DNA of 64,000 nt, taken from positions 21,203 to 85,202 of the forward strand of contig JBAQUL010000035.1 of NCBI GenBank assembly GCA_049297495.1, in the 5' to 3' direction. Numbering within the stretch: position 1 is the first letter of the stretch; each line of letters starts with the position of its first letter. Shown here one piece after another: positions 3,866-57,941 of the stretch. Source of the DNA: Candidatus Moraniibacteriota bacterium. GTDB lineage: Bacteria; Patescibacteriota; Minisyncoccia; Moranbacterales; UBA2206. Under the pieces are notes generated by a model that searched no databases, had not been told where the DNA came from, and was given only the letters and a program-made list of their open reading frames with translations. Made by a program: the position numbers and the translations under genes.

Positions 3866-3921
3866 TTTTCTATTTATAATAAAATTATTTTGACTAAACA
3901 TTGTTATCCAGGCCAACAATC

Positions 3922-4374
3922 CTATTCGTTAAATTCCCCGCCTTCAACTGAAATAGAAATTATATCAACTCGCTTGGTCAGATTGTCATATTCAACCTTT
4001 GCAAAATCACCAACTCGCAAATCAGATAGCTTTTTTCTTTCTATTAATCCCCCTTTTCCCATGAAAAATACCGAGGTTGCTTCAGTCGTCTTGAGAGAAA
4101 CTGTCGGACTAGTACCATCTTTTATCAATTTTTTGAGCGGGCTACTATCATTCGTAATCACCAAACTATCACCCTCAATTGTGTTTATCACTCCGATCAC
4201 CTCCAGCTTAAGTGACTCAGAAACATCCCTATTCTTCGCCAGATTTTCTTTTAGAAATGCCCCCGTCAAAGCTCCCTGCATGTTTTCATGGCTTCGTTTT
4301 TTCATAAAAAGCGCAACCACTACAAAAACAGCTATGATTAATAATAGCACTAGCGCTAATTTCTTTTTATCCAT
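3922..4374 (-). CDS. Small membrane-anchored protein (N-terminal TM helix plus ~120-aa domain); paralog of the 21810..22241 product
   Basis: N-terminal hydrophobic LALVLLLIIAVFVVVALF. C-terminal GDFAKVEYDNLTKRVDIISISVE resembles GDSVKVTYDKTTKNASMISITRA of the 21810..22241 protein. Lies immediately upstream of the giant surface-protein gene. Confidence 0.55.
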   Translation of the reverse strand: MDKKKLALVLLLIIAVFVVVALFMKKRSHENMQGALTGAFLKENLAKNRDVSESLKLEVIGVINTIEGDSLVITNDSSPLKKLIKDGTSPTVSLKTTEATSVFFMGKGGLIERKKLSDLRVGDFAKVEYDNLTKRVDIISISVEGGEFNE

Positions 4375-9434: not shown

Positions 9435-9490
9435 AGGAATTTAACTGAACTTATAAATTATTAAAGCCCATAGCTACTTAAATAGGATTG

Positions 9491-9528
9491 TTTCATGTTT
9501 CATGTTTCATGTTTCATGTTTCATGTTT
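9491..9528. repeat. Tandem heptamer (tttcatg)x5 immediately 3' of the trxA stop codon
   Basis: tttcatgtttcatgtttcatgtttcatgtttcatg read directly. Degenerate copies of the same motif form the 5' leader of smc (about 21593-21640). Confidence 0.8.
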
Positions 9529-9912: not shown

Positions 9913-10028
9913 GAATTTCAAAATCCTAATATCAAATTTCCAATCAAATCCAAAGCTCAAAGCTCAAGATATTTTTGACATTTGAATTTTTAATTTGGTT
10001 TGACATTGGAAATTTGAGTTTTGAAATT
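9913..10028. repeat. Palindromic intergenic element of the 'aatttccaat / caaatccaaagctcaaa / tttgacattggaaattt' family (solo copy)
   Basis: Left half gaatttcaaaatcctaatatcaaatttccaatcaaatccaaagctcaaagctcaag, right half tttgacattggaaatttgagttttgaaatt. Same family at 53586-53662, 54938-54987/55357-55380 and 57812-57941. Confidence 0.65.
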
Positions 10029-10072
10029 ATCTTAATTTGATTTTAATATCAACATATACGAAGATGGATTTT

Positions 10073-21589: not shown

Positions 21590-21752
21590 CCTATCATGAA
21601 GCATGAAACATAAAACACGAAACAAAAAAGCTTGAGCCTAATTCGTCCTATGTTATATGCTTCATATTATATGTTACATGTTATGCTACATGTATTTTTA
21701 TTCTACAACACTTTTTAAAATAAATAAACCCAGAGTCACAAGTTAACAAAAA

Positions 21753-22274: not shown

Positions 22275-25271
22275 CTATTTCTCTTCCCATAGACCAGAAC
22301 CGCAAGGACCACAATAGGCAGAATCACACGTATTTGCCGGACAGCTCGCACAGATCCGAGGTTGTGTTCCGCAAACTCCCACTCCACACGGATTTGAACA
22401 ACCTGTAGTGCAAACTCCTGGTACACAGTCCGCTACACAAGAATTTCCACTTCGCGTAAATCCAACTTTGCAAGTATATTCACATTTTGGCTCGCTTCCT
22501 ACTGGTGAACTGCAAACGTCAACAACCACTCCGTCAATATTCGCCGCTAAAAAATAATCGTCATCAGCACAAAGATCAGCGTTACTAGGTGGGTTAGTAC
22601 ACGTAGCAGTGTTCAAGACACAAGCTCCGGCGCCACCATCCCAAATATAGCCATCTGCGCAAGAATAGCATTTCTGAGCACCACAACATGTCGAACCATC
22701 AGTTACAGTTTTAACTTTATACATCGCCTCATCAGCTGCCGAAATCGGATCGGCACACGCCCGCATATCAGTCCCGATAGGTTGACAAGTTGCCGCACAA
22801 ACGCTTGCCGAGGTCACACAAGGAGTCCCTGTGACCGCTCCATTATAGGGTGTAAGTAAGCAATTAACAGTCCCGTTTTCGTTCAGCAAAACACCGAAAT
22901 TAGTATACTCGGAAGGAACATTAAGCCCCAGGACTGGTGGCGTGAGACCATTGCAAGATAAGGTGCAACCTTTAGCTTTTGTCGTTGTCCAACTCAGAGG
23001 ACCCCAGGTATCCTTAGAATATGACGCGCTGCTAAAAGAAAAGCTATTGCAAACAGGAGTTTGCGTATAATATTCGCATGCCCCAACCGCTCCAGTACAG
23101 CCGGTAGCTGTCACATCTTTCCATAGGGTAACATTAGGTAATCCTGATGTTTTTGTGCTAGGACAAACTTCTTGAAATTCTCCAATCGGATCAGGAGGAG
23201 TACCTGTGCATGAATAACTTGCTGCCGGACCAACTGTTGTTGAAGCATAACAAGGTTCACCCACAACGGCACCCTTGCGAGGAAGAAGAGAGCAATTCAC
23301 CAACCCTTCTCTATTTAGCATCATACCATAATTAGTATATTGCTTGTTAACTATGCTACCAGAAAACTCAGGGTCAAGACCTGTGCAAGATAGCGCGCAA
23401 TCATCAGCGCCAGTAGTTGTCCAACTCAGCGACCCCCAAGCGTCCTTGACATAGCTACTATTGTCAAAGGAAAAAGCATTGCAAACTGGCGCCACTGCAA
23501 CTTCATACTCGATATCCGCTTGTCCACTGGAAATATCTCCATAATATACACTTCCTGAGAAATGTGCCCTATAAACACCAGGCACCGATTGCGCAACACC
23601 AACAACCGTAGCTGTCGAAGTACTGGACTGACCTACAATTGAAGTGCCATTAGAAAGCAAACTATAGCTGGTTTCATTTATTTCTGCTTCCAATGTTATG
23701 CCCATAGTTGTGTTGGAACAAGTTGATGAATACGCGTTACCAGTAGCAATAATCGCCTCGTTTGGTTTGTACACAGTCTTATCTAAGTTTACATTATATG
23801 TAATAGCACCAATGTAATTAAAATCCACAACAAATGTGGCCCCTGCTGCCCATACACCGCTCGATACCAATAGCCCGGAAGCAACTAAAATCAATAAAAG
23901 AAATGTATTAATATGCCTTTTTTTGATTAATATAACTGCGAAGGATATTATGGAGAGCAGAAAAATAAAGGAAATTCCATAGAATAATAAATTATTTTTT
24001 TGATTTTCTTTTTTTTGCTCCTGCTTGATTGTTGTATTTACCGACTCACCTTTACTCGTGAGCCTATAATCGCTTTGGTCCAGAATTAAGCCCTTCGCAT
24101 CTTGGATTGCGACACTGATTTGGGGGTCAAGACAATCAGCAATGACAGGAAAATCAAAAGACGGAGTTCTTTCCTTGGAATCAAGTTCTTTTTTACTATT
24201 TATAGCAACACAATTAGTGTTGTTTTTATCTTTTATGGAAATTATTGCAAACAACTTTCCACCATCCGTTGCGCCGAAACGAGAACCAGAAAAACTATCA
24301 GCAGAGGGAGTCCAAAAGAAGGAAGCCTTGGCCGCATCACCTTTTTGATAATAATCCTTATCTAAACGAAGATTTTGAATTGTAGCACTAGCTCCTCGCA
24401 ACACATAATGGAAAATTGCTTTATTGGAAATCACGTTACCATTCGCATCGGATAGATTGACAATAATATCATAGGCCTGAGGCACAGTAGCCTTGGGAAG
24501 GGTAAAACTAACTTGCTTTTTTTCTTGTGGATTTAGTACTAGGACTTTTTGAGGTTCTTGATTATCCGGAACAACTCGTCCAAAAGTAGTGCGCCAATGC
24601 GTTTCGGCTTTTGGAGTAACTGTCAATGTTGTTTTTGAATGATTCGTAATTTCACAAGTTGCAGTTAGCCTTTCCGTATCTTTGATGTCCACACCTTGAC
24701 CTAATGCATATTGCCGACCACTCACTTCTCCCGTAACTATCATAAAGCAAGAATTGACATCAATTTCCGCATATTGTCCATCTCCACTCAATACAACATC
24801 TCCAGGATGAACCATTGCCAACAGAAGACCATTTTGATTTTTAGCAACAAGCCAAAGCTGAAAATTACCAGAAAAATAGGCGGGAGCGATATAATTAATT
24901 TCTTTTGAAATTGTCTCATTCTCACCAAGATTGACTATTTCCGGATAAATCTGCTCGTCCACGACCACTTGCCCACCTTTGTCTTTTTTGATTAACTGAA
25001 CGGCGTATTTAACATCCGGCTGAACATTGGCGCGGTTAGAAAGTCCAAAAGTTACCTTGAGCTGATTTTTATCCTGAGAAACTATTTTTGCATTATCAAT
25101 TCCAGTCGTGGCTACTGTGTCTGTCTTTTTTTGTTTTGGCGATGAAATCTCGGCGGCTTGAACATTTGAGATAAAAAAAGCCAATCCAAAAATGACCAAG
25201 ATACTAATGGTTAATTTTTGGAAAGCACTTTTTTGTTTCATTCTTTTTGTTTTATTTTGTTCATTACTCAA
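22275..25271 (-). CDS. Large cell-surface protein (998 aa): signal peptide, ~400-aa N-domain, internal two-helix TM hairpin, C-terminal Cys-rich repeats sharing the CEYY motif with the first giant protein
   Basis: N-terminal KQKSAFQKLTISILVIFGLAFFISNVQA. Internal LLFYGISFIFLLSIISFAVILIKKRHINTFLLLILVASGLLVSSGVWAAG. Two C-terminal ~110-aa repeats CN(A/S)FSF..S(Y).KD.WG.LSWTTT...C.LSC.GL. Confidence 0.7.
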   Translation of the reverse strand: MSNEQNKTKRMKQKSAFQKLTISILVIFGLAFFISNVQAAEISSPKQKKTDTVATTGIDNAKIVSQDKNQLKVTFGLSNRANVQPDVKYAVQLIKKDKGGQVVVDEQIYPEIVNLGENETISKEINYIAPAYFSGNFQLWLVAKNQNGLLLAMVHPGDVVLSGDGQYAEIDVNSCFMIVTGEVSGRQYALGQGVDIKDTERLTATCEITNHSKTTLTVTPKAETHWRTTFGRVVPDNQEPQKVLVLNPQEKKQVSFTLPKATVPQAYDIIVNLSDANGNVISNKAIFHYVLRGASATIQNLRLDKDYYQKGDAAKASFFWTPSADSFSGSRFGATDGGKLFAIISIKDKNNTNCVAINSKKELDSKERTPSFDFPVIADCLDPQISVAIQDAKGLILDQSDYRLTSKGESVNTTIKQEQKKENQKNNLLFYGISFIFLLSIISFAVILIKKRHINTFLLLILVASGLLVSSGVWAAGATFVVDFNYIGAITYNVNLDKTVYKPNEAIIATGNAYSSTCSNTTMGITLEAEINETSYSLLSNGTSIVGQSSTSTATVVGVAQSVPGVYRAHFSGSVYYGDISSGQADIEYEVAVAPVCNAFSFDNSSYVKDAWGSLSWTTTGADDCALSCTGLDPEFSGSIVNKQYTNYGMMLNREGLVNCSLLPRKGAVVGEPCYASTTVGPAASYSCTGTPPDPIGEFQEVCPSTKTSGLPNVTLWKDVTATGCTGAVGACEYYTQTPVCNSFSFSSASYSKDTWGPLSWTTTKAKGCTLSCNGLTPPVLGLNVPSEYTNFGVLLNENGTVNCLLTPYNGAVTGTPCVTSASVCAATCQPIGTDMRACADPISAADEAMYKVKTVTDGSTCCGAQKCYSCADGYIWDGGAGACVLNTATCTNPPSNADLCADDDYFLAANIDGVVVDVCSSPVGSEPKCEYTCKVGFTRSGNSCVADCVPGVCTTGCSNPCGVGVCGTQPRICASCPANTCDSAYCGPCGSGLWEEK

Positions 25272-31771: not shown

Positions 31772-31778
31772 AGGTATA

Positions 31779-31829
31779 ATGTATGAAGTATTATGTATAA
31801 AGTATTTTTAAATACATTATACATCATAC
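31779..31829. repeat. Solo palindromic unit of the 'gtattatgtat' family (arms atgtatgaagtattatgtataaagtat / atacattatacatcatac)
   Basis: Read directly, in the dnaB-recR spacer. Same arm sequences flank the four-helix-bundle gene at 48173..48550 and occur inside porA. Confidence 0.65.
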
Positions 31830-31846
31830 CAAATACTTACTACATT

Positions 31847-32440
31847 TTGTATCCCAAATCTTTCAAAAAGCTAATCGACAACTTCGCAGCCCTGCCATCA
31901 ATCGGTCCCAAAATGGCCGAGCGATTGGTATTGTATTTATTTAAAGAAGATAATCAAAAATTATCTGATTTTGCCAAAAGCCTTGAGGATTTCAAGAAGA
32001 ATCTTCGTCACTGCAAAAAATGCTGGAATATCAGCGAAGAAGAGCTTTGCTCTATCTGCAAGGATAGTTCACGCGACCAAGCTACTATCTGCGTTGTCGA
32101 AGATACGCTGGATGTTTTCGCGATTGAAAAAACCAAAAAATATAACGGCCTGTACCATGTCCTCGGCGGAGTCCTTAATCCAACAAAAACCGTCGGATCG
32201 GACAATCTACATTTCAAGGACTTGGAAAACAGAGCCGAAAAAGAAGCAATCAAAGAAGTGATCCTAGCGATGAACCCAACCACGGAAGGCGACGCCACAG
32301 CGCTCTATATTACCAGAAACCTAAAAGATAAGGGCATAAAGATTACCCGCCTCGCAAGAGGCCTCGCCACCGGCGCTGACATTGAACATGCCGATGAGCT
32401 GACGCTTAGCTCGTCGCTTGCCAATAGAAGGGAAGTATAA
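31847..32440 (+). CDS. recR: Recombination protein RecR
   Basis: LYPKSFKKLIDNFAALPSIGPKMAERL matches the RecR N-terminus (TTG start at 31847). C4 zinc finger CKKCWNISEEELCSIC and Toprim domain. Confidence 0.8.
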   Translation: MYPKSFKKLIDNFAALPSIGPKMAERLVLYLFKEDNQKLSDFAKSLEDFKKNLRHCKKCWNISEEELCSICKDSSRDQATICVVEDTLDVFAIEKTKKYNGLYHVLGGVLNPTKTVGSDNLHFKDLENRAEKEAIKEVILAMNPTTEGDATALYITRNLKDKGIKITRLARGLATGADIEHADELTLSSSLANRREV

Positions 32441-32725: not shown

Positions 32726-33430
32726 CTATTTTGTGAATTTGAATGAAGAAATTATCAACTTTTCTTGAGCTGAAAGTTTGCCACCATCCCAAAAGGTGAT
32801 GTGAAAAATATAATCATTTTTTTGTGCTGTAATCTGATAAGTTCCACCATAACCAGCACCACCATCCTTTTGAGAGTTACCCACCGCAGCTCCACCTGCG
32901 AAAGAAATCGGTGTTCCCTCTAGTAATTTTGATTGAGGATTGTAATTGTTAGAATAACTAACATACATCCGGGATGGCCCTCCTTGATAACCACCATGTT
33001 CAACTTTTTTGTTATAATCTTCTTCCGTGAGCATTCCGATAGTATAAGCACCTGCTGCATGATCAGCACTTTCTTTACAAATAACAAACTCGGCAGGATA
33101 TTTAAATTCGAGACCAATTTGTGCATCAACATAGGTTTTCCATCCTGCATATTTACCTGAAACATCCGGCTGTACAATTGATGGTATCGCGGGGTATTCT
33201 TCCGACTGAGTTTCAACTGGTTGCGTTAGTGTTTTTTTTATAGGAGTCGACGCGGCTATCTGAGCCGCAATCAATTGCGCTGGCGATTTTGTCACAGGAA
33301 CCGACACTGCTGTCTGAGTCAAATCAGTCGACATATTTTTTTCATATTGCCATACAAACATCCCTGCCGTAATTGCAATAATCACAATCACGATTGTTCC
33401 TGAAAGTGTTGGAATTTTTTTATTATCCAT
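32726..33430 (-). CDS. Membrane-anchored secreted hypothetical protein
   Basis: Start at MDNKKIPTLSGTIVIVIIAITAGMF (TM anchor). Gly/Tyr-rich C-terminal domain. Confidence 0.45.
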   Translation of the reverse strand: MDNKKIPTLSGTIVIVIIAITAGMFVWQYEKNMSTDLTQTAVSVPVTKSPAQLIAAQIAASTPIKKTLTQPVETQSEEYPAIPSIVQPDVSGKYAGWKTYVDAQIGLEFKYPAEFVICKESADHAAGAYTIGMLTEEDYNKKVEHGGYQGGPSRMYVSYSNNYNPQSKLLEGTPISFAGGAAVGNSQKDGGAGYGGTYQITAQKNDYIFHITFWDGGKLSAQEKLIISSFKFTK

Positions 33431-33522
33431 TTTTTTATTTTTTAAAATTATTGTTTCAATCTTTTTTCCTAACTTATTTATACCAAAAAAGCACACTTCT
33501 GTCTAATTCGCAAAACAAAAAA

Positions 33523-40602: not shown

Positions 40603-42249
40603 ATGTTTCAATCCTACGATGAATTTGTAAAATGTGCAATGAAAGAGCTTGCGACCACCTCTGGTGATTTTTTACGCATTAAAAAAGATATTTCTAAGCT
40701 CTTACAAATTCCCGTTCCGACCAACGCTGATCTGCGTGAAGCTTATGAAAAACTAGTCCTAGCAAGAAAAATTAAACGAAATTTGGCTTTTGAAAACGTC
40801 CTTGTCAGCAAAAAAATTCGCACACGCTCCGGGGTTGCTGTCATTGCAGTTCTCACCAAGCCTTATCCTTGCCCAGGGAAATGTCTCTATTGTCCCAGTG
40901 AATCCAAAATGCCCAAAAGTTACCTCAAAAATGAGCCAGCTGTTATGCGAGCTATTTCTGTCAAATTCAAACCCTACGCTCAAGTGCAAAAACGCTTGCA
41001 CGCATTGGAATTAAATGGACACAAAACAGACAAAATCGAACTGATCGTGATGGGTGGAACTTTTTCCTATTTTCCCAAAAAATATCAAAGTTGGTTTATT
41101 ATGGAATGTTTTCGGGCAGCGAATGATTATGGTCATGAAACATGTAACATAAAACATGAAACAAATACGAAGACGCCCCAGCGGTGGAGAAATGTATCAC
41201 AATGCATTTCTCCTACGACACTAGGCCGCGAACAAAAGAAAAATGAAACTGCCAAGCGCCGGATTATTGGACTAACATTAGAAACTCGACCAGATTATAT
41301 TGATGAAAAGGAAATTCTCAATTTTCGTGCCCTTGGTTGTACTAGAGTGGAACTGGGCGTGCAAAGTATTTTTGATGACGTGCTCAAAAAAAACAATCGC
41401 GGGCACGCTGTGGCCGAAACAATTCGTGCCACAAAACTCTTGAAAAACGCTGGTTTTAAAATCAACTATCACATGATGCCGGGACTCTATAAATCGGACG
41501 CGAGAAAAGATTATCAAATGTTCGAGAAATTGTTCTCCTCGCCAGATTTCCAACCGGATATGCTCAAAATCTATCCAACGGTTGTTCTGCGCGATAGCGC
41601 GCTGTATGCTGTTTGGAAAAAAGGGAAATATAAAGCGTTAACCGACAAACAATTTGAAAAATTCATCCTGCGCGTGAAAGAAAATCTCATTCCACCCTAT
41701 GTCCGCATTGCCCGTCTTGTGCGTGATGTTCCTGCAGAATCAATCATTGCCGGGCCAATTGTTTCTAATTTACGACAATTGATTGCCGAAAAATCGAAAT
41801 GTCAGTGCATCAGATGTCGAGAGGTAGGAATAAATTTCGAACCAGCAGAAGGCATTATCCTTAACCGCATCGACTACGACGCTTCCGATGGCAAGGAAAT
41901 ATTTCTGGAATATGTAACAGAAAATAAGAAAAAATTATTTGCTCTTCTGCGCTTGCGCATAAATCCACTTGAGCTGGAGAATCAAAAAACGGGGGTTTCC
42001 ACTCTCAAAAATTCCGCCATCATCCGCGAAGTACATACTTATGGAAAAATGACTGAAATTGATAAAAAAGACTTGAACTCACCGCAACATATTGGTCTTG
42101 GAAAAAAACTCATTGCCGAAGCCCAGAAAATTGCCAAAGAGGAATTCGGCCTCAAAAAGATTGCCATCATTTCCGGCATCGGAGCGAGAGAATATTATCG
42201 AAAACTCGGCTATCGCTTGAAAGATAGTTATATGGTAAAATATCTTTAA
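40603..42249 (+). CDS. Elp3-like radical-SAM plus GNAT protein (tRNA wobble-uridine carboxymethylation family)
   Basis: CPGKCLYCP radical-SAM cluster motif, ELP3-type middle region, and C-terminal GNAT (HIGLGKKLIAEAQKIA...GIGAREYYRKLGY). Confidence 0.75.
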   Translation: MFQSYDEFVKCAMKELATTSGDFLRIKKDISKLLQIPVPTNADLREAYEKLVLARKIKRNLAFENVLVSKKIRTRSGVAVIAVLTKPYPCPGKCLYCPSESKMPKSYLKNEPAVMRAISVKFKPYAQVQKRLHALELNGHKTDKIELIVMGGTFSYFPKKYQSWFIMECFRAANDYGHETCNIKHETNTKTPQRWRNVSQCISPTTLGREQKKNETAKRRIIGLTLETRPDYIDEKEILNFRALGCTRVELGVQSIFDDVLKKNNRGHAVAETIRATKLLKNAGFKINYHMMPGLYKSDARKDYQMFEKLFSSPDFQPDMLKIYPTVVLRDSALYAVWKKGKYKALTDKQFEKFILRVKENLIPPYVRIARLVRDVPAESIIAGPIVSNLRQLIAEKSKCQCIRCREVGINFEPAEGIILNRIDYDASDGKEIFLEYVTENKKKLFALLRLRINPLELENQKTGVSTLKNSAIIREVHTYGKMTEIDKKDLNSPQHIGLGKKLIAEAQKIAKEEFGLKKIAIISGIGAREYYRKLGYRLKDSYMVKYL

Positions 42250-43838: not shown

Positions 43839-44876
43839 CTACTTTCCAGCTAACTGCCCACATGCCCCTGCTACCTCCTGCCCAAGACTTTTTCGGATCG
43901 TCACACTCATTCCACCTTTTTCCAGATAGTCTTTGAAGAGATGCGTTTTATTGCCAGAAGAAGCCTTAAATTCTTTGCCAGTTTCATTATAAGCAATCAA
44001 GTTAACATGCAAAAGTTGGCGATTGCCAATTGATTTTAAATAGGTCGAAAGTGCATAAGCGTCTTCTTCGCTATCGTTTATACCTGCGAGCATCACATAT
44101 TCCACGAATACTTGCCTGTTAGTTTTAGAAAAATAATCCTTGAGCGCTTTTTTTAGCTCTTCAAGATTATATTTTTGATTGATTGGCATATACTGATTTC
44201 TCTTAACGTCGCTCGCAAAATGCAAAGAAATCGCCAAATTAATTTGCGAAAATTCTTCGGCCAAGCTTTTAATTCCCTCCGGAATTCCCGCCGTCGAAAC
44301 GGAGATGCTCCGCGAGCCAAATGCGAATAAGTCTTTATCAACAAGGTCGTGCAAAGTTTTTTTCACTTCTTCCCAATTCAAAAACGGCTCCCCCATTCCC
44401 ATGAAAACGACATTCGTCAATTTGAAATTTGAAATTTGAAATTTGAAATTTTTCTCAAGGTACTGCCTCCAAAACAAAACCTGGTCACTAATTTCTTCCG
44501 CCGTTAGATTTCGTTGAAATCCGCTTTTCCCTGTCGAGCAAAAACCGCAATTCAAGGGACAGCCGACTTGAGATGAGATGCAAACTGACCATTTATTTTC
44601 CATAGGCGAAAGCAAGACCGATTCAATTTTATTCCCATCAGCTAATTTCAAAAGTGCTTTCAGAGATTTTTCATCTTTCGAAACTAGAACTTTTTCCACT
44701 TCAAAGGACAAGATTTTCATTTCTTTTTCCAGCTGTTCACGCAAATTCTTGGAAATAGTTGAAATTTCCGAAAAATCAGAAACGCCATCCTGATAGATGG
44801 CTTTTTGAATTTGGCTCAGACGAAATTTCGGTTCGCCGTTTTCAGTGAGAATTTTTTTTAGTTTTTCTAGTTGCAT
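43839..44876 (-). CDS. rlmN: 23S rRNA/tRNA adenine-C2 methyltransferase RlmN (canonical)
   Basis: CISSQVGCPLNCGFCSTG, VVFMGMGEP, VSTAG and GACGQL motifs. Contains an in-frame octamer-repeat insertion (see 44420..44451). Confidence 0.85.
   Translation of the reverse strand: MQLEKLKKILTENGEPKFRLSQIQKAIYQDGVSDFSEISTISKNLREQLEKEMKILSFEVEKVLVSKDEKSLKALLKLADGNKIESVLLSPMENKWSVCISSQVGCPLNCGFCSTGKSGFQRNLTAEEISDQVLFWRQYLEKNFKFQISNFKLTNVVFMGMGEPFLNWEEVKKTLHDLVDKDLFAFGSRSISVSTAGIPEGIKSLAEEFSQINLAISLHFASDVKRNQYMPINQKYNLEELKKALKDYFSKTNRQVFVEYVMLAGINDSEEDAYALSTYLKSIGNRQLLHVNLIAYNETGKEFKASSGNKTHLFKDYLEKGGMSVTIRKSLGQEVAGACGQLAGK
44420..44451. repeat. Tandem octamer (aatttgaa)x4 in-frame inside rlmN, encoding NFKFQISNFK
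   Basis: caatttgaaatttgaaatttgaaatttgaaattttt read directly. The motif is related to the ggaaatttga intergenic repeat family. Confidence 0.7.
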
Positions 44877-46018: not shown

Positions 46019-46924
46019 TTAAAGCCCACATAAACTCGCAATTCTCGCGAACTCATCATTAACTATTTTTTGAATCTTACCTAAAATCAATTTATTCTTA
46101 GGAAGAAATAAATGCTTAAAACGTCCTTGGGTTTTCAAAAATTCACTCACCGGTTTTAGGGTTTTTGGTTCCCAATTCAATTTATACTTTCCATTTTCAA
46201 TTTCATAGAGCGGCCAAAAATTGGTTTCTGTCGCCAGCTTCGCAATCGCCACATATTGCGAAGTGGGAAATTTCCAATTATTTGTGCAAGGTGAAAAAAC
46301 CGTCAGAAAACTCGGTCCGTCCACGGCGAGTGCTTTCTTGGCTTTCATTTTGAGGTCAGCCAAATTGGCAATATTTGCTTGCGCGGCATAGGGAATATTG
46401 TGCGCTGCCACAATCCCCATAAGATTTTTTCGCATTTCCACCTTGCCAAAAGACTCATCTCCGACCGGTGTCGTTTCCGTCCCAGCGCCGTAGGGCGTGG
46501 CTGACGATCTTTGATTACCAGTATTCATGTAACCACCATTGTCATAGACAACGTAGAGAAAATTATGTCCGCGTTCGAGTGCGCCAGAAAGTGCTTGGAG
46601 CCCAATGTCATAGGTTCCGCCATCTCCACCAAAGGCAACGAATTTGATTTTCTTCTTAATCTTGCCTTTTTTCCTCATTGCAAGATATGCCCGCTCGACA
46701 CCAGAGATTGTCGCGGCCGCATTTTCAAAGGCACTGTGGATATAGGGCACGTTCCAAGCAGTGTAGGGATAGATAGTCGAAGTCACTTCGAGGCATCCCG
46801 TCGCATTAGAAATCACCACTGGCGTAGTCGCTTCACCCAGAATCGTTCGCACAATTGAGGGAAAAGCGCATCCTGCGCAAGCGCTGTGACCAGGAGCTAA
46901 ATTTTTTGAGAGTTCTTTGTTCAT
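46019..46924 (-). CDS. porB: Pyruvate/2-oxoacid:ferredoxin oxidoreductase beta subunit (TPP-binding)
   Basis: CAGCAFPSIV Cys motif and GGDGGTYDIG TPP motif. Confidence 0.85.
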   Translation of the reverse strand: MNKELSKNLAPGHSACAGCAFPSIVRTILGEATTPVVISNATGCLEVTSTIYPYTAWNVPYIHSAFENAAATISGVERAYLAMRKKGKIKKKIKFVAFGGDGGTYDIGLQALSGALERGHNFLYVVYDNGGYMNTGNQRSSATPYGAGTETTPVGDESFGKVEMRKNLMGIVAAHNIPYAAQANIANLADLKMKAKKALAVDGPSFLTVFSPCTNNWKFPTSQYVAIAKLATETNFWPLYEIENGKYKLNWEPKTLKPVSEFLKTQGRFKHLFLPKNKLILGKIQKIVNDEFARIASLCGL

Positions 46925-46971: not shown

Positions 46972-48162
46972 TTAGGTTAAATATTTATCCTTAAACTTCC
47001 CCTCCAAAATTTTCTCGATCTGTTTTTTAAACACATCTCGTCCGCCCAGGCCATAAATGTGGGAATGTATTATGTATGATGTATTATGTATCATGCCTTT
47101 TTTTTCTTCTTCCATACTTGATACATTATACATACTACATAATACTTCTGCGTATAGCGGCGGATGTGAACCAATTGATTGCGCGCGATCCATCACGATT
47201 ATTTCTTTCACTGTAGAGACGCGATTTATCGCGTCTTTGAGCGCATCAAATGCAAACGGACGAAACAGTTCAATTTTCAAAAGTCCGACTTTTTGGCCCT
47301 TCTTCCTTAGGCCATCAATCGCATCCTTGGCCGTACCAGCAACTGATCCGATTAGCACTAAAACTTTTTGGGCATCTCCCGACTCATATTCTTCAAACAA
47401 TCCATATCCCCTTCCACTTATTTTTTTATATTCCTTGGCAATCTTCAAATATTCTTCCGCAACTTTTCCCATCGCCTCTTCTTGATCAATCTTAAACTCA
47501 AAATAGGATTCTTGGAGCGCCACCGGACCATAAGTCACTGGTTTTTCAAGGTCGAGCAATGAATGTTCGGGCTGATACTCTCCAATAAATTTTTTGACAA
47601 GTTTCGCATCCAAAATTTCCAAATTTTCCACGGAGTGCGAAGTATTAAACCCGTCCATAATCACCATCACCGGCAGTCCGACGCGCTCGGCCAGTTTCAT
47701 CCCAATAATTGTTTTGTCATAGACTTCTTGAGGATTTTCACAAAAAATTTGCACCCAGCCGGAGTCGCGACTTCCCATCACATCACTATGATCACCGTGA
47801 ATGCTTAAGGGAGCAGAAAGCGCACGAGCTGCCACAACCATCAGAATTGGCAAACGCATACCGGAAGCCACATAAAGCATTTCATGCATATAGGCGAGTC
47901 CCTGGGAGCTTGTAGCCGTTGCTGTGCGTGCTCCCGCGGCTGACGCGCCAATAGCTGCACTCATTGCGCTGTGTTCAGATTCCACTTCAATCATTTCTGT
48001 TTCCACCTCACCATCCGCCACAAACTTAGCATACGTTTCAATAATCGGCGTCTGCGGGGTAATTGGATAGATCGGCATCACGTCCGGCTCAATCTGCTTC
48101 AAGGCATACGCCGCAGCATAACCACCAGTCAATGCAAGCTGTTTTTTAGTATTAAGTATCAT
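46972..48162 (-). CDS. porA: Pyruvate/2-oxoacid:ferredoxin oxidoreductase alpha subunit
   Basis: ALTGGYAAAYALKQ N-terminus, the PFOR domain I/II pattern, and C-terminal IYGLGGRD. Contains an inverted-repeat insertion near its 3' end. Confidence 0.85.
   Translation of the reverse strand: MILNTKKQLALTGGYAAAYALKQIEPDVMPIYPITPQTPIIETYAKFVADGEVETEMIEVESEHSAMSAAIGASAAGARTATATSSQGLAYMHEMLYVASGMRLPILMVVAARALSAPLSIHGDHSDVMGSRDSGWVQIFCENPQEVYDKTIIGMKLAERVGLPVMVIMDGFNTSHSVENLEILDAKLVKKFIGEYQPEHSLLDLEKPVTYGPVALQESYFEFKIDQEEAMGKVAEEYLKIAKEYKKISGRGYGLFEEYESGDAQKVLVLIGSVAGTAKDAIDGLRKKGQKVGLLKIELFRPFAFDALKDAINRVSTVKEIIVMDRAQSIGSHPPLYAEVLCSMYNVSSMEEEKKGMIHNTSYIIHSHIYGLGGRDVFKKQIEKILEGKFKDKYLT
47065..47145. 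repeat. Inverted repeat of the 'gtattatgtat' family inside the porA coding region (arms 47065-47095 and 47114-47145, 18-nt spacer), read through in-frame as ...SSMEEEKKGMIHNTSYIIHSHIYG
   Basis: Left arm atgtattatgtatgatgtattatgtatcatg. Reverse complement of right arm gtattatgtagtatgtataatgtatcaagtat. No stop codons are introduced. Confidence 0.65.
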
Positions 48163-48580
48163 GTATTATGTATCAAGTATTAAAATTCTTAATTTTCTTT
48201 AGGCCTGTAATTAATTTGTGAACAATGATGGTTTGATTGGCAATTTTATTAAATTCTTCTTTATTTATATGTCCAATATCCCTGCCTACAATTAATTGAT
48301 TCTGTAATTCAGTAAGTGACCCATGGGCTATAGAATAAAATTGGCACTTATCCTTAGCTGTACTTCTACTAAAGCCTTCCGCAACATTAGAAGTAATAGA
48401 TATAGCTGCCCTACGCATTTGACTAACGAGTCCAAATAATTCTTCTCTAGGAAAACTCTTAGTAACTCCGTAAATCATTAAGACTAATTTATGACCTTCC
48501 TGCCAAGCATATAAATCTGTAAATGATTTTATCTTTGCCTTTTCCTCCATACATTATACATAATACTTCATACATACTAC
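48148..48580 (-). mobile_element. Putative TIR-bounded mini-cassette carrying a four-helix-bundle gene, inserted between porD and porA
   Basis: About 32-bp imperfect inverted repeats of the gtattatgtat family at both ends (48148-48185 and 48549-48580). The repeats overlap the porA start codon and the porD stop codon. The same arms occur as cargo-less palindromes at 31779-31829 and 47065-47145. Confidence 0.55.
48173..48550 (-). CDS. Four-helix-bundle protein (TIGR02436 / '23S rRNA intervening-sequence protein' / Avd-like family)
   Basis: AWQEGHKLVLMIYGVTKSFPREELFGLVSQMRRAAISITSNVAEGFSRSTAKDKCQFYSIAHGSLTELQNQL matches the family consensus. Confidence 0.75.
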   Translation of the reverse strand: MEEKAKIKSFTDLYAWQEGHKLVLMIYGVTKSFPREELFGLVSQMRRAAISITSNVAEGFSRSTAKDKCQFYSIAHGSLTELQNQLIVGRDIGHINKEEFNKIANQTIIVHKLITGLKKIKNFNT

Positions 48581-48837
48581 TTCTTCATAATAATCGCGCG
48601 AACTGGACAAACCTGCGCACAGACACCGCAACCCTTGCAAAATTCATAGTCAATATCCGCCTTATCCCGCTTATCGTTTTTATGCTTTTTCATTTCGATG
48701 CATGCATCAGGACAAAACGGCACGCAAGTCGTGCAGCCGATGCACTTATCCTTATCCACTTCCGGCTTCATATACCGCCAAGAGCCAGTCCGGGGAGATT
48801 TTTTGATGTCATGTTTTATGATTGCGCCTTTTTCCAT
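48577..48837 (-). CDS. porD: POR delta subunit: 2x[4Fe-4S] ferredoxin
   Basis: CIGCTTCVPFCP and CKGCGVCAQVCP motifs. Confidence 0.8.
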   Translation of the reverse strand: MEKGAIIKHDIKKSPRTGSWRYMKPEVDKDKCIGCTTCVPFCPDACIEMKKHKNDKRDKADIDYEFCKGCGVCAQVCPVRAIIMKK

Positions 48838-48843
48838 TATGTT

Positions 48844-49878
48844 TTATTCCATTTTAGTATTATCACCAAACCATTTTACATATAATTCGTCATACCTGCC
48901 AGATTCTCGCAATTCCAATAATACTCTATTTATAGCTTCTCGTAAAACAGTTGCACCCTCTTTAACCACGATGCCATAGACATGTGGATTGAAGACATCG
49001 CCCACGATTTCAAATTCTTTCATACCGGCATTTCTGACGAAATAAAGAAGTGAGGGCGCATCAAAAACTACCGCGTCCACCAAGCCTGCTTTCAATTTTT
49101 CATAGGCTTTTTCGATATTCTTCACCGTCACGATTTTGGCGTTCAATTTCCTCAAGACCTCAACGCTGATTGTTTTTTCGACTGTCGCGACATTTTTTCC
49201 CACCAGATCCTTGTGTCCACTGATATTGCCTTGCAATTTTGACATTGTGATGAGTGAGCTAGTTTCAGCAATAAAAAAACCAAAAATAATGTATCCGCCA
49301 AGAATCACCACTGTGCTAAAAATCCTACCAATCCAAGATTGAGGAACAAAATCTCCATAACCAACGGTACTCATTGCCACAATCGCCCACCAAAATGACT
49401 CAAAAATTCCCGGAAAATAATGGCTATTAAACGTTCCCGTATTCTTCTCCGCAAACCAAACAATATTTCCAAATACTCCGATAAAAAGAGCGATGCCAAA
49501 AATAGCTTCCAATATTTTTTTATACCCATTCTTGATTAGATTTCTAATTGTAATAAAAATATTGATATTTTTGTTACTAGAAACCAACACTAAGAGTCCT
49601 GATTCAAGCGTATTATGGGAAAAATCAATAATCTCTTCTCGCTCTTTATTAATGGTTATTCCAGCTAGCGCCAAATCCGCTTTCCCATCACAGACATTGT
49701 CGAATATGCTAGAAAAACCAACTTTTTTATATTGAAAATCCAACTTCAGCCTTCGGGCAATCATGCCCCAAAGCTCGATTTCAAAACCAGAAAAATTCCT
49801 CCCTTTTTTCATCACTAAAGGTGGAATTTCGCTTACAGCAACAGTTAAAATTGCTTTCTTAGTAACACTATTTTTCAT
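48844..49878 (-). CDS. GluR0-type ionotropic glutamate-receptor-like K+ channel (periplasmic-binding-protein fold interrupted by a pore module)
   Basis: S1 lobe (ADLALAGITINKEREEIIDFS). M1-pore helix-selectivity filter AMSTVGYGDFVP-M2. S2 lobe (DAVVFDAPSLLYFV...). Confidence 0.7.
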   Translation of the reverse strand: MKNSVTKKAILTVAVSEIPPLVMKKGRNFSGFEIELWGMIARRLKLDFQYKKVGFSSIFDNVCDGKADLALAGITINKEREEIIDFSHNTLESGLLVLVSSNKNINIFITIRNLIKNGYKKILEAIFGIALFIGVFGNIVWFAEKNTGTFNSHYFPGIFESFWWAIVAMSTVGYGDFVPQSWIGRIFSTVVILGGYIIFGFFIAETSSLITMSKLQGNISGHKDLVGKNVATVEKTISVEVLRKLNAKIVTVKNIEKAYEKLKAGLVDAVVFDAPSLLYFVRNAGMKEFEIVGDVFNPHVYGIVVKEGATVLREAINRVLLELRESGRYDELYVKWFGDNTKME

Positions 49879-49912: not shown

Positions 49913-50461
49913 TCAAATCGCATCGTATGCCTTCTCAATCGCTAAAATATTTTTTTCACAATTTTCTTTGCCGATTTTAGCTTCGAAAATTTTGCGAAAT
50001 TCTTCCAAGATACTTTCCAGTTTGACAACTTCCGTCACTTTGATAATTTTACCAAGAATTACCGTGTTTGGTCTTGGTTGACCAACAATGGCCATGGAAA
50101 TTCCATTAGCATCTACGGCGTGAATTTTTCCGTCAAAACGAATCAGGTCTCGAATTTCATGCGGGCTTTTGGTAGAATTAATAATCAATGCCTCATTTTT
50201 GTCCAACCCTTCAGTTACTTTCTGACTAGAAAGCAACGTATCATCCAAGACTACCACCACATCGGGATCAATGACTGGCTCTTTGGTGCGAATAGCTTTA
50301 TCGGAAATGCGCAAATAGGTCTTAGTCGGCGCACCGCTTCTTTCCGGCCCAAAATTGGGAAAAGTTTGCACAAAATTGCCCTCAAGCACTGCCGCTTGCG
50401 CAATAATTTCCGCCGCGGTTTTTGCCCCTTGCCCACCCCGCGCAAAAAAGATGATTTCCAT
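49913..50461 (-). CDS. porG: POR gamma subunit
   Basis: MEIIFFARGGQGAKTAAEI. ATG at 50461 with SD aagga. The track's ORF starts further upstream at a TTG. Confidence 0.8.
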   Translation of the reverse strand: MEIIFFARGGQGAKTAAEIIAQAAVLEGNFVQTFPNFGPERSGAPTKTYLRISDKAIRTKEPVIDPDVVVVLDDTLLSSQKVTEGLDKNEALIINSTKSPHEIRDLIRFDGKIHAVDANGISMAIVGQPRPNTVILGKIIKVTEVVKLESILEEFRKIFEAKIGKENCEKNILAIEKAYDAI

Positions 50462-50518
50462 TGTGTCCTTATGATATTTCATAGGATTAGTATAGCATAA
50501 ATTCTGATTCAATTGTAG

Positions 50519-54904: not shown

Positions 54905-54946
54905 AAATTCCAAGAAACAAGATAATGTCTTTAATTTCAAAATTCT

Positions 54947-55378
54947 AATTTCCAATTTCCAATCAATTTCAAAATCAAAATGTCAAACTATTTTTTCTTA
55001 CTAATTGATGAAAATATTAGTGTTAGTTCATGAGCTTCTTGCCATAATTTTCTGCATTTTTCTTTCTTGTCTGGATTTGCGATTGCAAACATATGCAGCC
55101 AATGAGTAGTTTCTTTTGCTTCTTTCTTGCAAATACTGATTTTATGCTGAAAATCTTTTTTTGATTCAGCACAGTCAGCTTCCATATAATTAGCACCGAT
55201 ACTTGTTGCGGATCTAATTAATTGACTTATGAGTGGTCGATTTATAGTATTTTCCTGAATTGTTTTTATGAATAAAATAATTTCTCCACCAAACTTGGAA
55301 GTTCTTTCAACTAAATCATACTTTTTATCATTTGGATTTTGAATTTTGTTTGGCATTGGGAATTGGAAATTGGAAATT
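54947..55378 (-). mobile_element. Putative TIR-bounded mini-cassette carrying a four-helix-bundle gene, inserted between the ABC ATPase and permease genes
   Basis: Perfect 17-bp terminal inverted repeats aatttccaatttccaat (54947-54963) and attggaaattggaaatt (55362-55378). The right TIR overlaps the ATPase stop codon. Cargo-less relatives lie at 9913-10028, 53586-53662 and 57812-57941. Confidence 0.6.
54988..55356 (-). CDS. Four-helix-bundle protein (TIGR02436 / IVS-protein / Avd-like family), second copy, divergent from the first
   Basis: KKYDLVERTSKFGGEIILFIKTI...ISQLIRSATSIGANYMEADCAESKKDFQHKISICKKEAKETTHWLHM matches the family consensus. Confidence 0.7.
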   Translation of the reverse strand: MPNKIQNPNDKKYDLVERTSKFGGEIILFIKTIQENTINRPLISQLIRSATSIGANYMEADCAESKKDFQHKISICKKEAKETTHWLHMFAIANPDKKEKCRKLWQEAHELTLIFSSISKKK

Positions 55379-56105
55379 ATTTTAGTAGTTCATTCTCCCC
55401 CTCCGCAATCCGCCTGTTTTTGACTGGATCATCCGCAATCAATTTCCCATCCTTGACATAGAGGATTCTTTTGGCGTGTTCAGCTGTATAGGTTTCATGT
55501 GTAACCAAAATTACAGTATGCCCAGAATCATTTAGTTTCTGTAAAATTTTCATTACTTGAAGACCTGACTTTGAGTCCAGATTTCCCGTTGGCTCATCAG
55601 CAAAAATCACCTCTGGATCATTGACTAGAGCTCTTGCTATTGCCACTCGCTGTTTTTCCCCACCAGAAAGCTGATTGGAAAAATACTGCGCGCGATGCTC
55701 CATCCCCACGGCCATAAGTGCATCCATCACTTTTTTGGTATTGCTCTTATCCGGCTTTTCATCATATAGCAATGGCAATTCGACATTTTCAAACACTGTT
55801 GTGCGAGAAAGCAGATTGAAAGATTGAAACACGAAACCGATTTTCTTGTTTCTAATTTTAGCCAAAGTATCGTCGTCAAAAGAAAAAGTGTCCCGACCTT
55901 CAAAAAAATATTTCCCCTCCGTCGGCCGATCCAGAAAACCCAAAATCTGCATCAAAGTCGATTTGCCAGAACCTGATGGACCCATAATGGAAATAAATTC
56001 CCCTTTTTGAATCTCAAAAGTTGCCTCACAAAGCGCCTGCGTTTCCACGCCGTCATTAGAATAGGTCTTGCAAAGATTTTGGACTTGAATTAGGGGGTTT
56101 GACAT
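55377..56105 (-). CDS. ABC transporter ATP-binding protein (MacB/LolD type)
   Basis: Walker [10 protein letters not shown], signature [15 protein letters not shown], and Walker [12 protein letters not shown]. Confidence 0.9.
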
Positions 56106-56416: not shown

Positions 56417-56500
56417 GTCTGAACCACATGATTTTTCTAATTGCACGTGATTGAATTTTAAATTCAGTGAAATCAAGCGTAATCAGAGATAATCAGCGGT

Positions 56501-57811
56501 TCAGATATCTTTTGTAAAAGTAACGACCTTGTCACCATCTTTCAAGCCAGATTTTGCCTCCACCATTCCACCGTCGCCTTCCAGCCCAGTGGTAATTTTC
56601 ACTTCTTGGACCAAATTATCATCACTCAAAACATCCACAAATTTCTCTCCATTTCTAATTTTAATGGCCCTAAGGGGAATCATAAGCACATCACTTTTTT
56701 CATTGGTCCTCACGTCAACATTAGCACTCATCCCTGGCTTCAACCTCTGATCAACCGTGGAAAGCTTCAATTTAATCCCATAATAAACTACGTCTTGGAT
56801 AACAGTTTCGGCTGGATTAATTTCAATGAGCTCTGCCTCGAATTCATCGCCAGTCGGCAACGCATCAAAAGTAACTTTGGCTTTTTGACCGAGCTTTAAT
56901 TTCACGATATCTGACTCGGGAATATTAGACTCAATAATAAAATCATCAGCAATAATCCGCGCAAAGGATTCCTTAATCACGCCGGTACCTAAAATTTCTC
57001 CCACCTTATTGTTCACTTCCACGATTGTGCCAGAAACCGGTGCTTTGAGCACGGCTTTCGAAAGATTATTAAGCGCAATCTCATAATTGGCTTTGGCGTT
57101 ATCCACCGAGGCGTTTTTGGAATTGAGCGTGAAATCTGACTGGGTCGTTTTCAATCTAGCTTTCGCCGCGTCCAAAGAATTCTCCGCCGAAGTAATCGCC
57201 AAATCGCGAGATTTTTTGGCAGTATCCAATGCTTCCTCGGCCGCTTTCTTGCTATTTAGAGCCGTAGTCAAAGTCAACTTATTGGTCTTGGTTGGGCTGT
57301 CATTATAGAAATCCAACGCGTCAGAATAATAGTCCTTGGCATTATCGAGCGCCGTCTCCGCCGCGTCAACTCTTTGTTTTTCCAACTTTTCTGTTTCATC
57401 CAAAAAATTATCAGCATTATCCACTGCCACGTCCGATTCACGGATCGCATCATTATTTGATCCAGCATCGGCCACCGCTTTATTGAGTGTTGCCTTCGCT
57501 ACTGCGACTTGACCGGATAGATTGACATTGTCAAGCATCGCGATCGAATCACCCGCTGCCACTTTATTACCTTTCTTGATAAAAACCTTGCTAATTCTTC
57601 CTCCCAACTCAAAGTTGAGAACGATCTCAGAATCATCTTTGAGATCCCCGGTCGCTGAAACAGTTTGTGATAGACTGCCTTTCTCCACCGTCGCCGTCGT
57701 ATATTCAACTTTGACCTTTTTGGACCGCGCATAGAAAAAGTAGCCTCCAGCTAAAAGCAACATTGATATAATAGCGATGGTTTTTTTGTATTTAAACATA
57801 AAATTTTTCAA
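56501..57811 (-). CDS. HlyD/MacA-family periplasmic adaptor (membrane fusion protein)
   Basis: N-terminal TM, long Ala/Asp-rich coiled coil, and biotinyl-lipoyl-like plus beta-barrel segments. The real start may be the ATG at 57799. Confidence 0.8.
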   Translation of the reverse strand: MKNFMFKYKKTIAIISMLLLAGGYFFYARSKKVKVEYTTATVEKGSLSQTVSATGDLKDDSEIVLNFELGGRISKVFIKKGNKVAAGDSIAMLDNVNLSGQVAVAKATLNKAVADAGSNNDAIRESDVAVDNADNFLDETEKLEKQRVDAAETALDNAKDYYSDALDFYNDSPTKTNKLTLTTALNSKKAAEEALDTAKKSRDLAITSAENSLDAAKARLKTTQSDFTLNSKNASVDNAKANYEIALNNLSKAVLKAPVSGTIVEVNNKVGEILGTGVIKESFARIIADDFIIESNIPESDIVKLKLGQKAKVTFDALPTGDEFEAELIEINPAETVIQDVVYYGIKLKLSTVDQRLKPGMSANVDVRTNEKSDVLMIPLRAIKIRNGEKFVDVLSDDNLVQEVKITTGLEGDGGMVEAKSGLKDGDKVVTFTKDI

Positions 57812-57941
57812 TTTCTAAATCCTAATTTCCAATGTCAAACAAAATCCAAAGCTCAAAATCCAAAATATTAATCTAGCAAAATTATTTTTGTTATTTGGAT
57901 TTTGAAATTGATTGGAAATTTGACATTAGAATTTTGAAATT
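57812..57941. repeat. Solo palindromic element of the aatttccaat family between hlyD and rnhA
   Basis: Left atttctaaatcctaatttccaatgtcaaacaaaatccaaagctcaaaatccaaaat. Right atttggattttgaaattgattggaaatttgacattagaattttgaaatt (reverse-complement related). Confidence 0.65.

Follow-up and report, generated by a model that had tools for sequence, protein, structure and literature searches.

Intervening sequences (IVSs) that interrupt rRNA genes and carry an open reading frame (ORF) have been known since the early 1990s, among others from Leptospira, Xanthomonas and Brucella. To our knowledge, their origin, their mobility and the role of the four-helix-bundle protein encoded in them have not been explained. 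The family PF05635/TIGR02436 is among the most abundant families of "hypothetical" proteins in Bacteroidota, cyanobacteria and bacteria of the Candidate Phyla Radiation (CPR). We describe here a gene of this family, HB1, in a 64,000-nucleotide stretch of a Candidatus Moraniibacteriota genome (contig JBAQUL010000035.1; hereafter the window), where it lies, bordered by two inverted arms, between the genes porD and porA of a por operon. This feature probably is a cassette of the rRNA-IVS type that lives in an mRNA operon and is expressed from the transcript of its host. The IVS of Coxiella burnetii offers the closest comparison: it has a 28-bp terminal stem and is excised by RNase III in vitro, with ends mapped by rapid amplification of cDNA ends; two to three tandem GACAGAT heptamers and a degenerate one stand directly before the S23p start, their copy number varies between strains, and the ORF is reported as decaying (PMC4990558).

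The por operon of the window and the two arms are arranged as follows, in the order of transcription (loci and genomes used for comparison carry L numbers throughout).

49913-50512, minus strand: porG
48844-49878, minus strand: GluR0-like channel gene, 344 aa, SBP_bac_3 split by an Ion_trans_2 pore, between porG and porD
48577-48837, minus strand: porD
48549-48581, minus strand: 5' arm (transcript sense), heptamers GTAGTAT GTATGAA GTATTAT GTATAAT GTATGG
48173-48550, minus strand: HB1, four-helix-bundle gene, 125 aa, PF05635/TIGR02436, between porD and porA
48148-48180, minus strand: 3' arm (transcript sense), ATACTTGATAC ATAATAC ATGATAC TTAATAC T
46972-48162, minus strand: porA
46019-46924, minus strand: porB

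HB1 matches the profile hidden Markov models (HMMs) of PF05635 (E 2e-35, 121.5 bits, cut-off 33.8) and TIGR02436 (E 9e-32, 109.6 bits, cut-off 24). With scores above both curated cut-offs, its membership in this family is established at the level of the protein sequence, and the initial annotation of the window, which had placed a 125-aa TIGR02436 gene between porD and porA, was correct in this respect. The sole relative of HB1 with a solved structure is 2GSC (Xanthomonas XCC0516; E 6e-22). The arms around HB1 form an inverted repeat of 33 nt that is 82% complementary and fill the whole spacer between porD and porA; the cassette measures ~435 bp, with HB1 in sense between two cistrons of the operon. 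Both neighbouring genes reach into the arms, as had been annotated: the porD-side arm includes the porD stop codon TAG (48579-48577), and its inner end is overlapped by the HB1 ATG (48550-48548); the other arm contains the HB1 stop codon TGA (48175-48173) together with the porA ATG (48162-48160) and encodes PorA residues 1-5 (MILNT). On the coding strand, the junctions read …ATG AAG AAG TAG-TATGTATGAAGTATTATGTATAATGT-ATG GAG… on the porD side and …AATACT TGA TACATAATAC ATG ATA CTT AAT ACT AAA… on the porA side. The inverted repeats on the motif gtattatgtat that the initial annotation had named are thus present, but they are not repeats with a unique terminal sequence: each arm consists of some five imperfect heptamers in tandem, and five heptamers run up to the HB1 ATG.

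By its PorA homologues, the window belongs to Candidatus Moranbacteria (CPR/Patescibacteria), and a PorA-based genome scan recovered about 43 por operons of Moranbacteria. In the closest relatives, L050 and L081, DNA identity to the window is ~90-91% across porG-porD, and L081 is also ~90% identical in the first 355 nt of porA. In neither of them does a gene separate porD from porA, and the sequence found there, …ATGAAAAAAAATTAG-CTT-ATG-TCT…, is common to many other lineages. Because this empty junction is shared by L050, L081 and so many others, it is the ancestral state and the cassette of the window an insertion, in agreement with the insertion element that had been proposed from the window alone. 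The clean junctions with target-site duplications expected of such an element were not seen. Instead, ~24 nt of the junction, comprising the last codons and stop of porD and the first codons of porA, are replaced by the cassette, and no target-site duplication was found when the occupied junction was compared with nine empty or differently filled ones. The same search was negative at the junction of a second cassette in the window.

54932-55379, minus strand: HB2 cassette, 56-nt inverted arms 54932-54987 / 55324-55379, 77% complementary, heptamer AATTTCC
54988-55356, minus strand: HB2, 122 aa, TIGR02436 (E 1e-21, 77 bits), between the genes of a MacB-type ABC ATPase and its permease

Four close relatives, whose ATPase is 93-95% identical, have no four-helix-bundle gene at the HB2 site; their spacers there span 27-173 nt and hold other palindromes that are not built of heptamers.

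HB1-like genes occupy the porD-porA junction in L006, L010, L042 and L173 and in the metagenome loci L083-L086. Over the eight occupied loci, four-helix-bundle identity does not follow PorA identity (Spearman 0.08), and in 22 of 28 pairs the four-helix-bundle protein is the better conserved of the two. In addition, porA is a recombination mosaic. It is 78.7% identical to that of L050 (window 46972-48162 versus L050 6015-7138), with flanking porG-porD and porB at ~91%, and in ELA543 (L081/L043) its 5' part is ~90% and its 3' part only ~74% identical. The uncorrelated identities of cassette and PorA and the mosaic porA point to exchange by recombination.

HB1 could instead be a resident accessory gene of the por operon, inherited vertically at a junction that was never empty in this lineage, with hairpins that are ordinary intercistronic regulatory structures. 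Genes of the same clade do recur at this junction in the loci just named, saturated synonymous divergence (dS) implies that the association is old, and the protein is under purifying selection. However, the closest relatives lack the gene although their flanks are ~90% identical on both sides, and they have the junction of many other lineages; most clade members reside in unrelated operons; the identities of cassette and PorA are uncorrelated; and the same junctions carry GxxExxY and NUDIX genes in other genomes. Vertical residence is thus a very unlikely explanation. The por operon is also not "otherwise conserved", as had been annotated. It is interrupted twice in the window, by the HB1 cassette between porD and porA and by the GluR0-like gene that has been inserted after porG; the latter is common to L050, L081 and L009, but most por operons of Moranbacteria lack it.

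The association of gene and arms extends well beyond this operon. Inverted heptamer arms enclose every one of the eight four-helix-bundle genes found in the window and in por loci of Moranbacteria, and the heptamers differ between them (GTATNAT, GGTATTT, AATTTCC, AATTTTT and AATTTCT); an iterative HMM search of the por loci for more such genes found only eight and left the clades of HB1 and HB2 unconnected. A metagenome scan yielded 80 loci with 59 distinct HB1-clade genes that have complete flanks, which we compared with 122 control ORFs. The inverted-repeat arm score reached at least 15 in 75% of the genes versus 7% of the control ORFs, and period-7 arrays were present on both flanks in 69% versus 5%. 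HB1-clade genes share the direction of the upstream neighbour in 51 of 53 cases and that of the downstream neighbour in 49 of 51. Median gaps to these neighbours are 35 and 32 nt, so that the arms fill the spacers.

Although heptamers differ between cassettes, the two arms of each cassette co-vary and so stay complementary. The median score of a cassette's own arms is 17, versus 8 when arms of different cassettes are combined (p = 6e-19). When 33 arm pairs are brought into phase, their consensus reads G-W-A-T-N-N-N, and in the opposite arm an unvarying C recurs every 7 nt; pairing is seen in 79.7% of cells versus 65.5% after shuffling (reached in 0 of 500 shuffles) and 35-41% with a slid partner, and double changes number 137 versus 71, counted on the source sequences that also gave the structure. 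Heptamer position 2 co-varies between A:U and U:A, and mismatches are frequent at positions 5 and 7. L173 holds the cassette closest to that of the window (88% protein identity), and between these two GTATTAT/ATAATAC has changed to GTAGCAT/ATGCTAC. The protein itself, with a dN/dS of about 0.04-0.15 in the HB1 clade, is under strong purifying selection. A dating of transfers by dS was rejected owing to its saturation.

These results bear on the idea that the arrays are generic, slippage-prone simple sequence like the short tandemly repeated repetitive (STRR) sequences of cyanobacteria, with no tie to the gene and with an inversion that is coincidental. Period-7 arrays do occur alone in the window (9489-9528, 41134-41163 and inside rlmN), and the loop of porA orthologues holds direct arrays of differing heptamers. 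Slippage alone would account neither for the excess of matched inverted arms at four-helix-bundle genes over control ORFs nor for their co-variation within cassettes, and the association recurs across phyla and in a true rRNA IVS (see below). We consider coincidence highly improbable.

In the window, the motif GTATTATGTAT has 17 matches with at most one mismatch, versus 0.77 expected (0 of 100 shuffles reach 17), and all except one fall in the clusters 31774-31829, 47067-47145 and 48149-48580. The two cargo-less palindromes with the same arms that had been annotated elsewhere in the window are recovered in this way. Period 7 is a specific property of the window DNA: at a threshold of 70% self-match, with Tandem Repeats Finder also used, there are 15 arrays of this period versus 0.8 in shuffles, and 1-6 arrays for each of the periods 4-6 and 8-12 versus 0.3-1.3. 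Besides the two cassettes, the palindromes and arrays are the following.

47065-47145, minus strand: ORF-less palindrome of the HB1 heptamer family, in frame in the variable PorA loop (…EVLCSMYNVSSMEEEKKGMIHNTSYIIHSHIYGLGG…)
31774-31829: ORF-less palindrome of the HB1 heptamer family, between the dnaB stop codon (31771) and recR
57806-57938: ORF-less palindrome of the HB2 family (AATTTCC / CCAATGYCAAACAAAAT)
9920-10035: ORF-less palindrome of the HB2 family, upstream of a thioredoxin-like gene
21590-21693: palindrome of a third heptamer family (CATGAAA)
9489-9528 and 41134-41163: solo arrays of the CATGAAA family
44419-44451, minus strand: direct heptamer array AATTTGA x4.7, in frame in rlmN (43839-44876)

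The palindrome in porA shows that such arrays also enter coding sequences. The sequence in its middle, GTATGGAAGAAGAAAAAAAAGGCATGATAC, looks like the 5' end of HB1 (GTATGGAGGAAAAGGCA) with the first unit of the 3' arm attached to it. The palindrome extends a loop that has 30 residues in the window versus 17 in array-free orthologues (e.g. L004, L007, L008, L009, L043 and L050; L015 has no array either); an in-frame palindrome in a conserved protein that is missing from orthologues is behaviour like that of Rickettsia palindromic elements (RPEs). Direct heptamer arrays occupy the loop in L005, L012, L010, L031, L036 and L017, and in L006, L014 and L174 the arrays are broken by a small GC-rich hairpin. 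Within one genome, the heptamer family of the porA loop is that of the porD-porA junction (window, L006, L010, L173). Judged across orthologues, the porA loop is a hot spot.

The hairpin just mentioned, ~20 nt long (CCTGCC-N5-GGCAGG and variants), is nested in frame in heptamer arrays of the porA loop in L006, L014 and L174 and of rlmN in L006, and it looks like a separate tiny mobile repeat aimed at heptamer arrays. The array in rlmN of the window codes for FKFQISNFK in RlmN. L050, L043 and L006 contain longer, unrelated in-frame inserts at the same point, which makes this point a further insertion hot spot within coding sequence.

Several of these features would also be expected of a classical DNA transposon or a miniature inverted-repeat transposable element (MITE), with the arms as terminal inverted repeats (TIRs), a transposase elsewhere, the four-helix-bundle gene as passenger and the ORF-less palindromes as MITEs. 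The unit is delimited by inverted repeats, its arms recur in several copies within 64 kb, presence and absence are polymorphic at two sites, and ORF-less derivatives exist. On the other hand, the porD-porA junction is not split with a target-site duplication but has lost ~24 nt to the cassette. The arms also appear to have no fixed terminal sequence: the copies in the window share a heptamer family, but genomes differ in the heptamer and in how often it is repeated, even where the site is the same. The near-absolute sense orientation in operons points to selection on the transcript, and the 30 large ORFs of the window that were scanned, a search confined to these 64 kb, include no transposase, reverse transcriptase (RT) or RNase III. 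In light of the missing duplication, the variable arms and this negative search of the window, the description of the element as a TIR-bounded one is not supported, and we regard a transposon or MITE as unlikely.

Some further observations concern the surroundings of these elements. The longest ORF of recR (31793-32440) begins at an ATG within the palindrome at 31774-31829, a start that would add ~18 residues; a TTG at ~31848 is a better match to the usual RecR N-terminus. Near HB2, the spacer between the HlyD and ATPase genes contains another palindromic element (56417-56505), TCAGAACCACTGATT…AATCA…GTGGTTCAGA, with units of ~9-10 nt. This element is also found in ATPase-permease spacers of relatives (spacers listed: L176, L177 and L178), and L175 has a different, GC-rich palindrome, GTCATCCTGAGCGAAG…CTTCGCTCAGGATGAC. 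For two window ORFs, at 22275-25271 (minus strand, 998 aa) and 32726-33496 (minus strand, 256 aa), no Pfam match at E <= 1e-5 was found.

The four-helix-bundle gene is not the only cargo at these junctions. GxxExxY / PD-(D/E)XK_3 genes (TIGR04256, PF13366) lie between porG and porD in L006 (4853-5257) and L173 (3287-3676), flanked by inverted heptamers TTACGAA/TTACTAA (TTACNAA) and TACTAAT, and represent a second family of cargo with arms of the same build; the NUDIX genes mentioned above are further cargo of the same junctions. Every junction is filled in L173 (1-8378, Logan SRR28495929 contig), in the order porG, GxxExxY gene, porD, four-helix-bundle gene, porA, four-helix-bundle gene, porB.

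L173 is also informative with respect to a possible identity of HB1 as the Avd accessory gene of a diversity-generating retroelement (DGR). PF05635 is homologous to Avd (PMC10053308), and close homologues also match the bAvd model PF22296. L173 contains a genuine pair of a DGR-type Avd (130-525; NF033474) and an RT directly upstream of its por operon, but this Avd has no heptamer arms, and its model NF033474 is not among the family matches of HB1. The neighbours of HB1 are porD and porA, and no RT was found near the cassette or in the 30 large window ORFs, a scan in which template and variable repeats were not searched for. That HB1 is the Avd gene of a DGR therefore seems extremely improbable.

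Outside the CPR, a tblastn search of plasmids with HB1 returned 29 records, mostly from Nostocales, and ten flanks were inspected. The gene lies between inverted heptamer arrays in Nostoc punctiforme (CAGGAGT/ACTCCTG, 44 nt), Trichormus variabilis, Calothrix NIES-22 (GGGTGTA), Geminocystis (GGGAAAA) and Riemerella (Bacteroidota, AAGGTTC). On Pseudanabaena galeata pPg_01 (L163, 1-3360), the gene lies between cas6 and cas4 with direct arrays, (AAAAGCT) x14 upstream and (AAAAGCC) x10 downstream. The homologue on Azospirillum lipoferum AZO_p2 (L172) is located within a gene for 23S rRNA (Rfam LSU, 2537 bits) and is a true IVS, flanked by inverted GGACAGA/GGACGGA arrays of 36 nt. The initial annotation had not recognized the organization of the HB1 locus as described; ORF-bearing 23S IVSs have the same build, as verified here in the Azospirillum 23S rRNA gene and published for Coxiella (PMC4990558).

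If HB1 lies in such an IVS-type cassette, it would have no promoter of its own and would be transcribed with porGDAB. In the transcript, the arms would pair to an imperfect stem of ~33 bp that closes the ORF and that, by analogy with rRNA IVSs, is a putative substrate of RNase III. Ribosomes would terminate in one arm and re-initiate in the other, so that porD, HB1 and porA are all translated; because the neighbours would thus continue to be translated, the insertion could be tolerated. Spread between lineages may occur by recombination or by another mechanism possibly involving the four-helix-bundle protein, and heptamer arrays and ORF-less palindromes could, speculatively, serve as landing pads. 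A junction that is occupied only patchily, together with a mosaic porA, would favour homologous recombination as the means of spread. Consensus scans for a promoter or terminator belonging to HB1 stayed at background level, no terminator-like site was found between the por cistrons, and pairing of the arms is predicted by the minimum-free-energy fold of the RNA as well as by its centroid fold.

Several points weigh against this interpretation. The z-score of the whole-region fold is only -1.2, a weak value since the ORF dominates the energy. Arm mismatches are mostly of the types A·A and G·A, at positions 5 and 7 of the heptamer, and show no bias of G·U over A·C (25 versus 32, p = 0.43), so pairing could be selected at the DNA level equally well as in RNA. 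A cut in the stem would fall next to the porA start codon, which looks costly, and the stem may therefore not be cleaved here. A few cassettes (L088, L149 and Pseudanabaena L163) have direct instead of inverted arrays, and the arrays rather than the stem may therefore be the more fundamental feature. Finally, an IVS-type cassette offers no explanation for the value 7 in the period-7 rule. We do not claim that the period avoids multiples of 3 because stops and starts are thereby placed in all three frames; this idea fits some heptamers and the octamer case described next, but fails for others, such as the upstream arms GGACAGA and CAGGAGT. The octamers belong to a divergent paralogue with 38% identity to HB1 (L089-L093, 1048-1437 / 3906-4295), which lies between octamer arrays in inverted arrangement (ATTGAATA), so that a period of 7 does not hold in every case.

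A wider interpretation, which we advance only tentatively, is that PF05635 genes, and probably GxxExxY/PD-(D/E)XK_3 genes as well, are cargo of one unnamed, cross-phylum class of cassettes with inverted heptamer arrays, of which the 23S IVSs merely occupy the best-known landing site. Such cassettes would colonize mRNA operons in sense and decay to ORF-less palindromes and solo arrays, thereby giving rise to STRR-type repeats and the period-7 repeats of CPR bacteria, and the protein would bind, maintain or mobilize the arrays.

Known repeat systems each share part of this architecture. MITEs and REP doublets forming hairpins (REPINs) are likewise short, palindromic, multi-copy intergenic units with presence/absence polymorphism, and the short forms in the window look like internal deletions of the longer form, as in those systems. 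In contrast to them, the window elements have no target-site duplications and appear to lack conserved termini, no linked transposase or REP-associated tyrosine transposase (RAYT) was found, and their arms are built of tandem repeats with a unit that varies from copy to copy. RPEs were reportedly described by Ogata et al. in 2000 (in Science) as lying in frame in protein-coding genes without destroying them. The in-frame palindrome at 47065-47145 in porA is similar to them in behaviour, which does not imply homology, and we know of no sequence relationship; RPEs are, moreover, not heptamer arrays and not tied to a cargo gene. STRRs, said to have been described by Mazel et al. in 1990, are tandem heptanucleotide arrays in intergenic parts of cyanobacterial operons. 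On plasmids of Nostoc, Trichormus and Calothrix, four-helix-bundle genes are accompanied by arrays that resemble STRRs, whereas the host here is a CPR bacterium; no link between STRRs and PF05635 genes was found in the literature searched. DGR Avd proteins share a homologous four-helix-bundle fold and family with HB1, and the differences are that no RT was found near HB1 or in the window ORFs scanned and that the DGR-type Avd of L173 lacks heptamer arms.

A literature search for heptamers or STRRs together with PF05635, or for IVS-like elements in mRNA, returned only the Coxiella paper (PMC4990558), with incomplete coverage, so that a prior description is possible. What appears to be undescribed is the residence in mRNA operons and coding sequences, the cross-phylum heptamer rule and the link to STRR repeats. 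If our interpretation is correct, the locus reveals an IVS-type cassette in protein-coding operons, nearly always in sense, with arms that double as stop and start signals, with presence/absence polymorphisms that can be dated and with ORF-less derivatives, and the IVS problem becomes testable outside the ribosome. It would also offer a possible origin of heptamer repeats such as STRRs and identify a source of in-frame insertions in CPR proteins.

The ORF-bearing 23S IVSs remain the nearest counterpart of the HB1 cassette. Both encode a PF05635 protein in sense within a highly transcribed unit, both have terminal complementary sequences that would close the ORF in a stem, both have tandem heptamers of variable copy number directly before the start codon, and ORF-less versions exist of both. 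Rfam finds only two tRNAs and no rRNA in the window, and no known RNA family at the cassette, which would fall outside the 23S rRNA IVSs on location only, with RNase III processing assumed by analogy. Unlike the IVSs in 23S helices 9, 25 or 45, the HB1 cassette lies between protein cistrons, with its ORF-less form in a coding sequence, and its arms serve as stop and start codons of the neighbouring genes. And whereas the Coxiella ORF is reported as decaying, the HB1-clade protein is under strong purifying selection.

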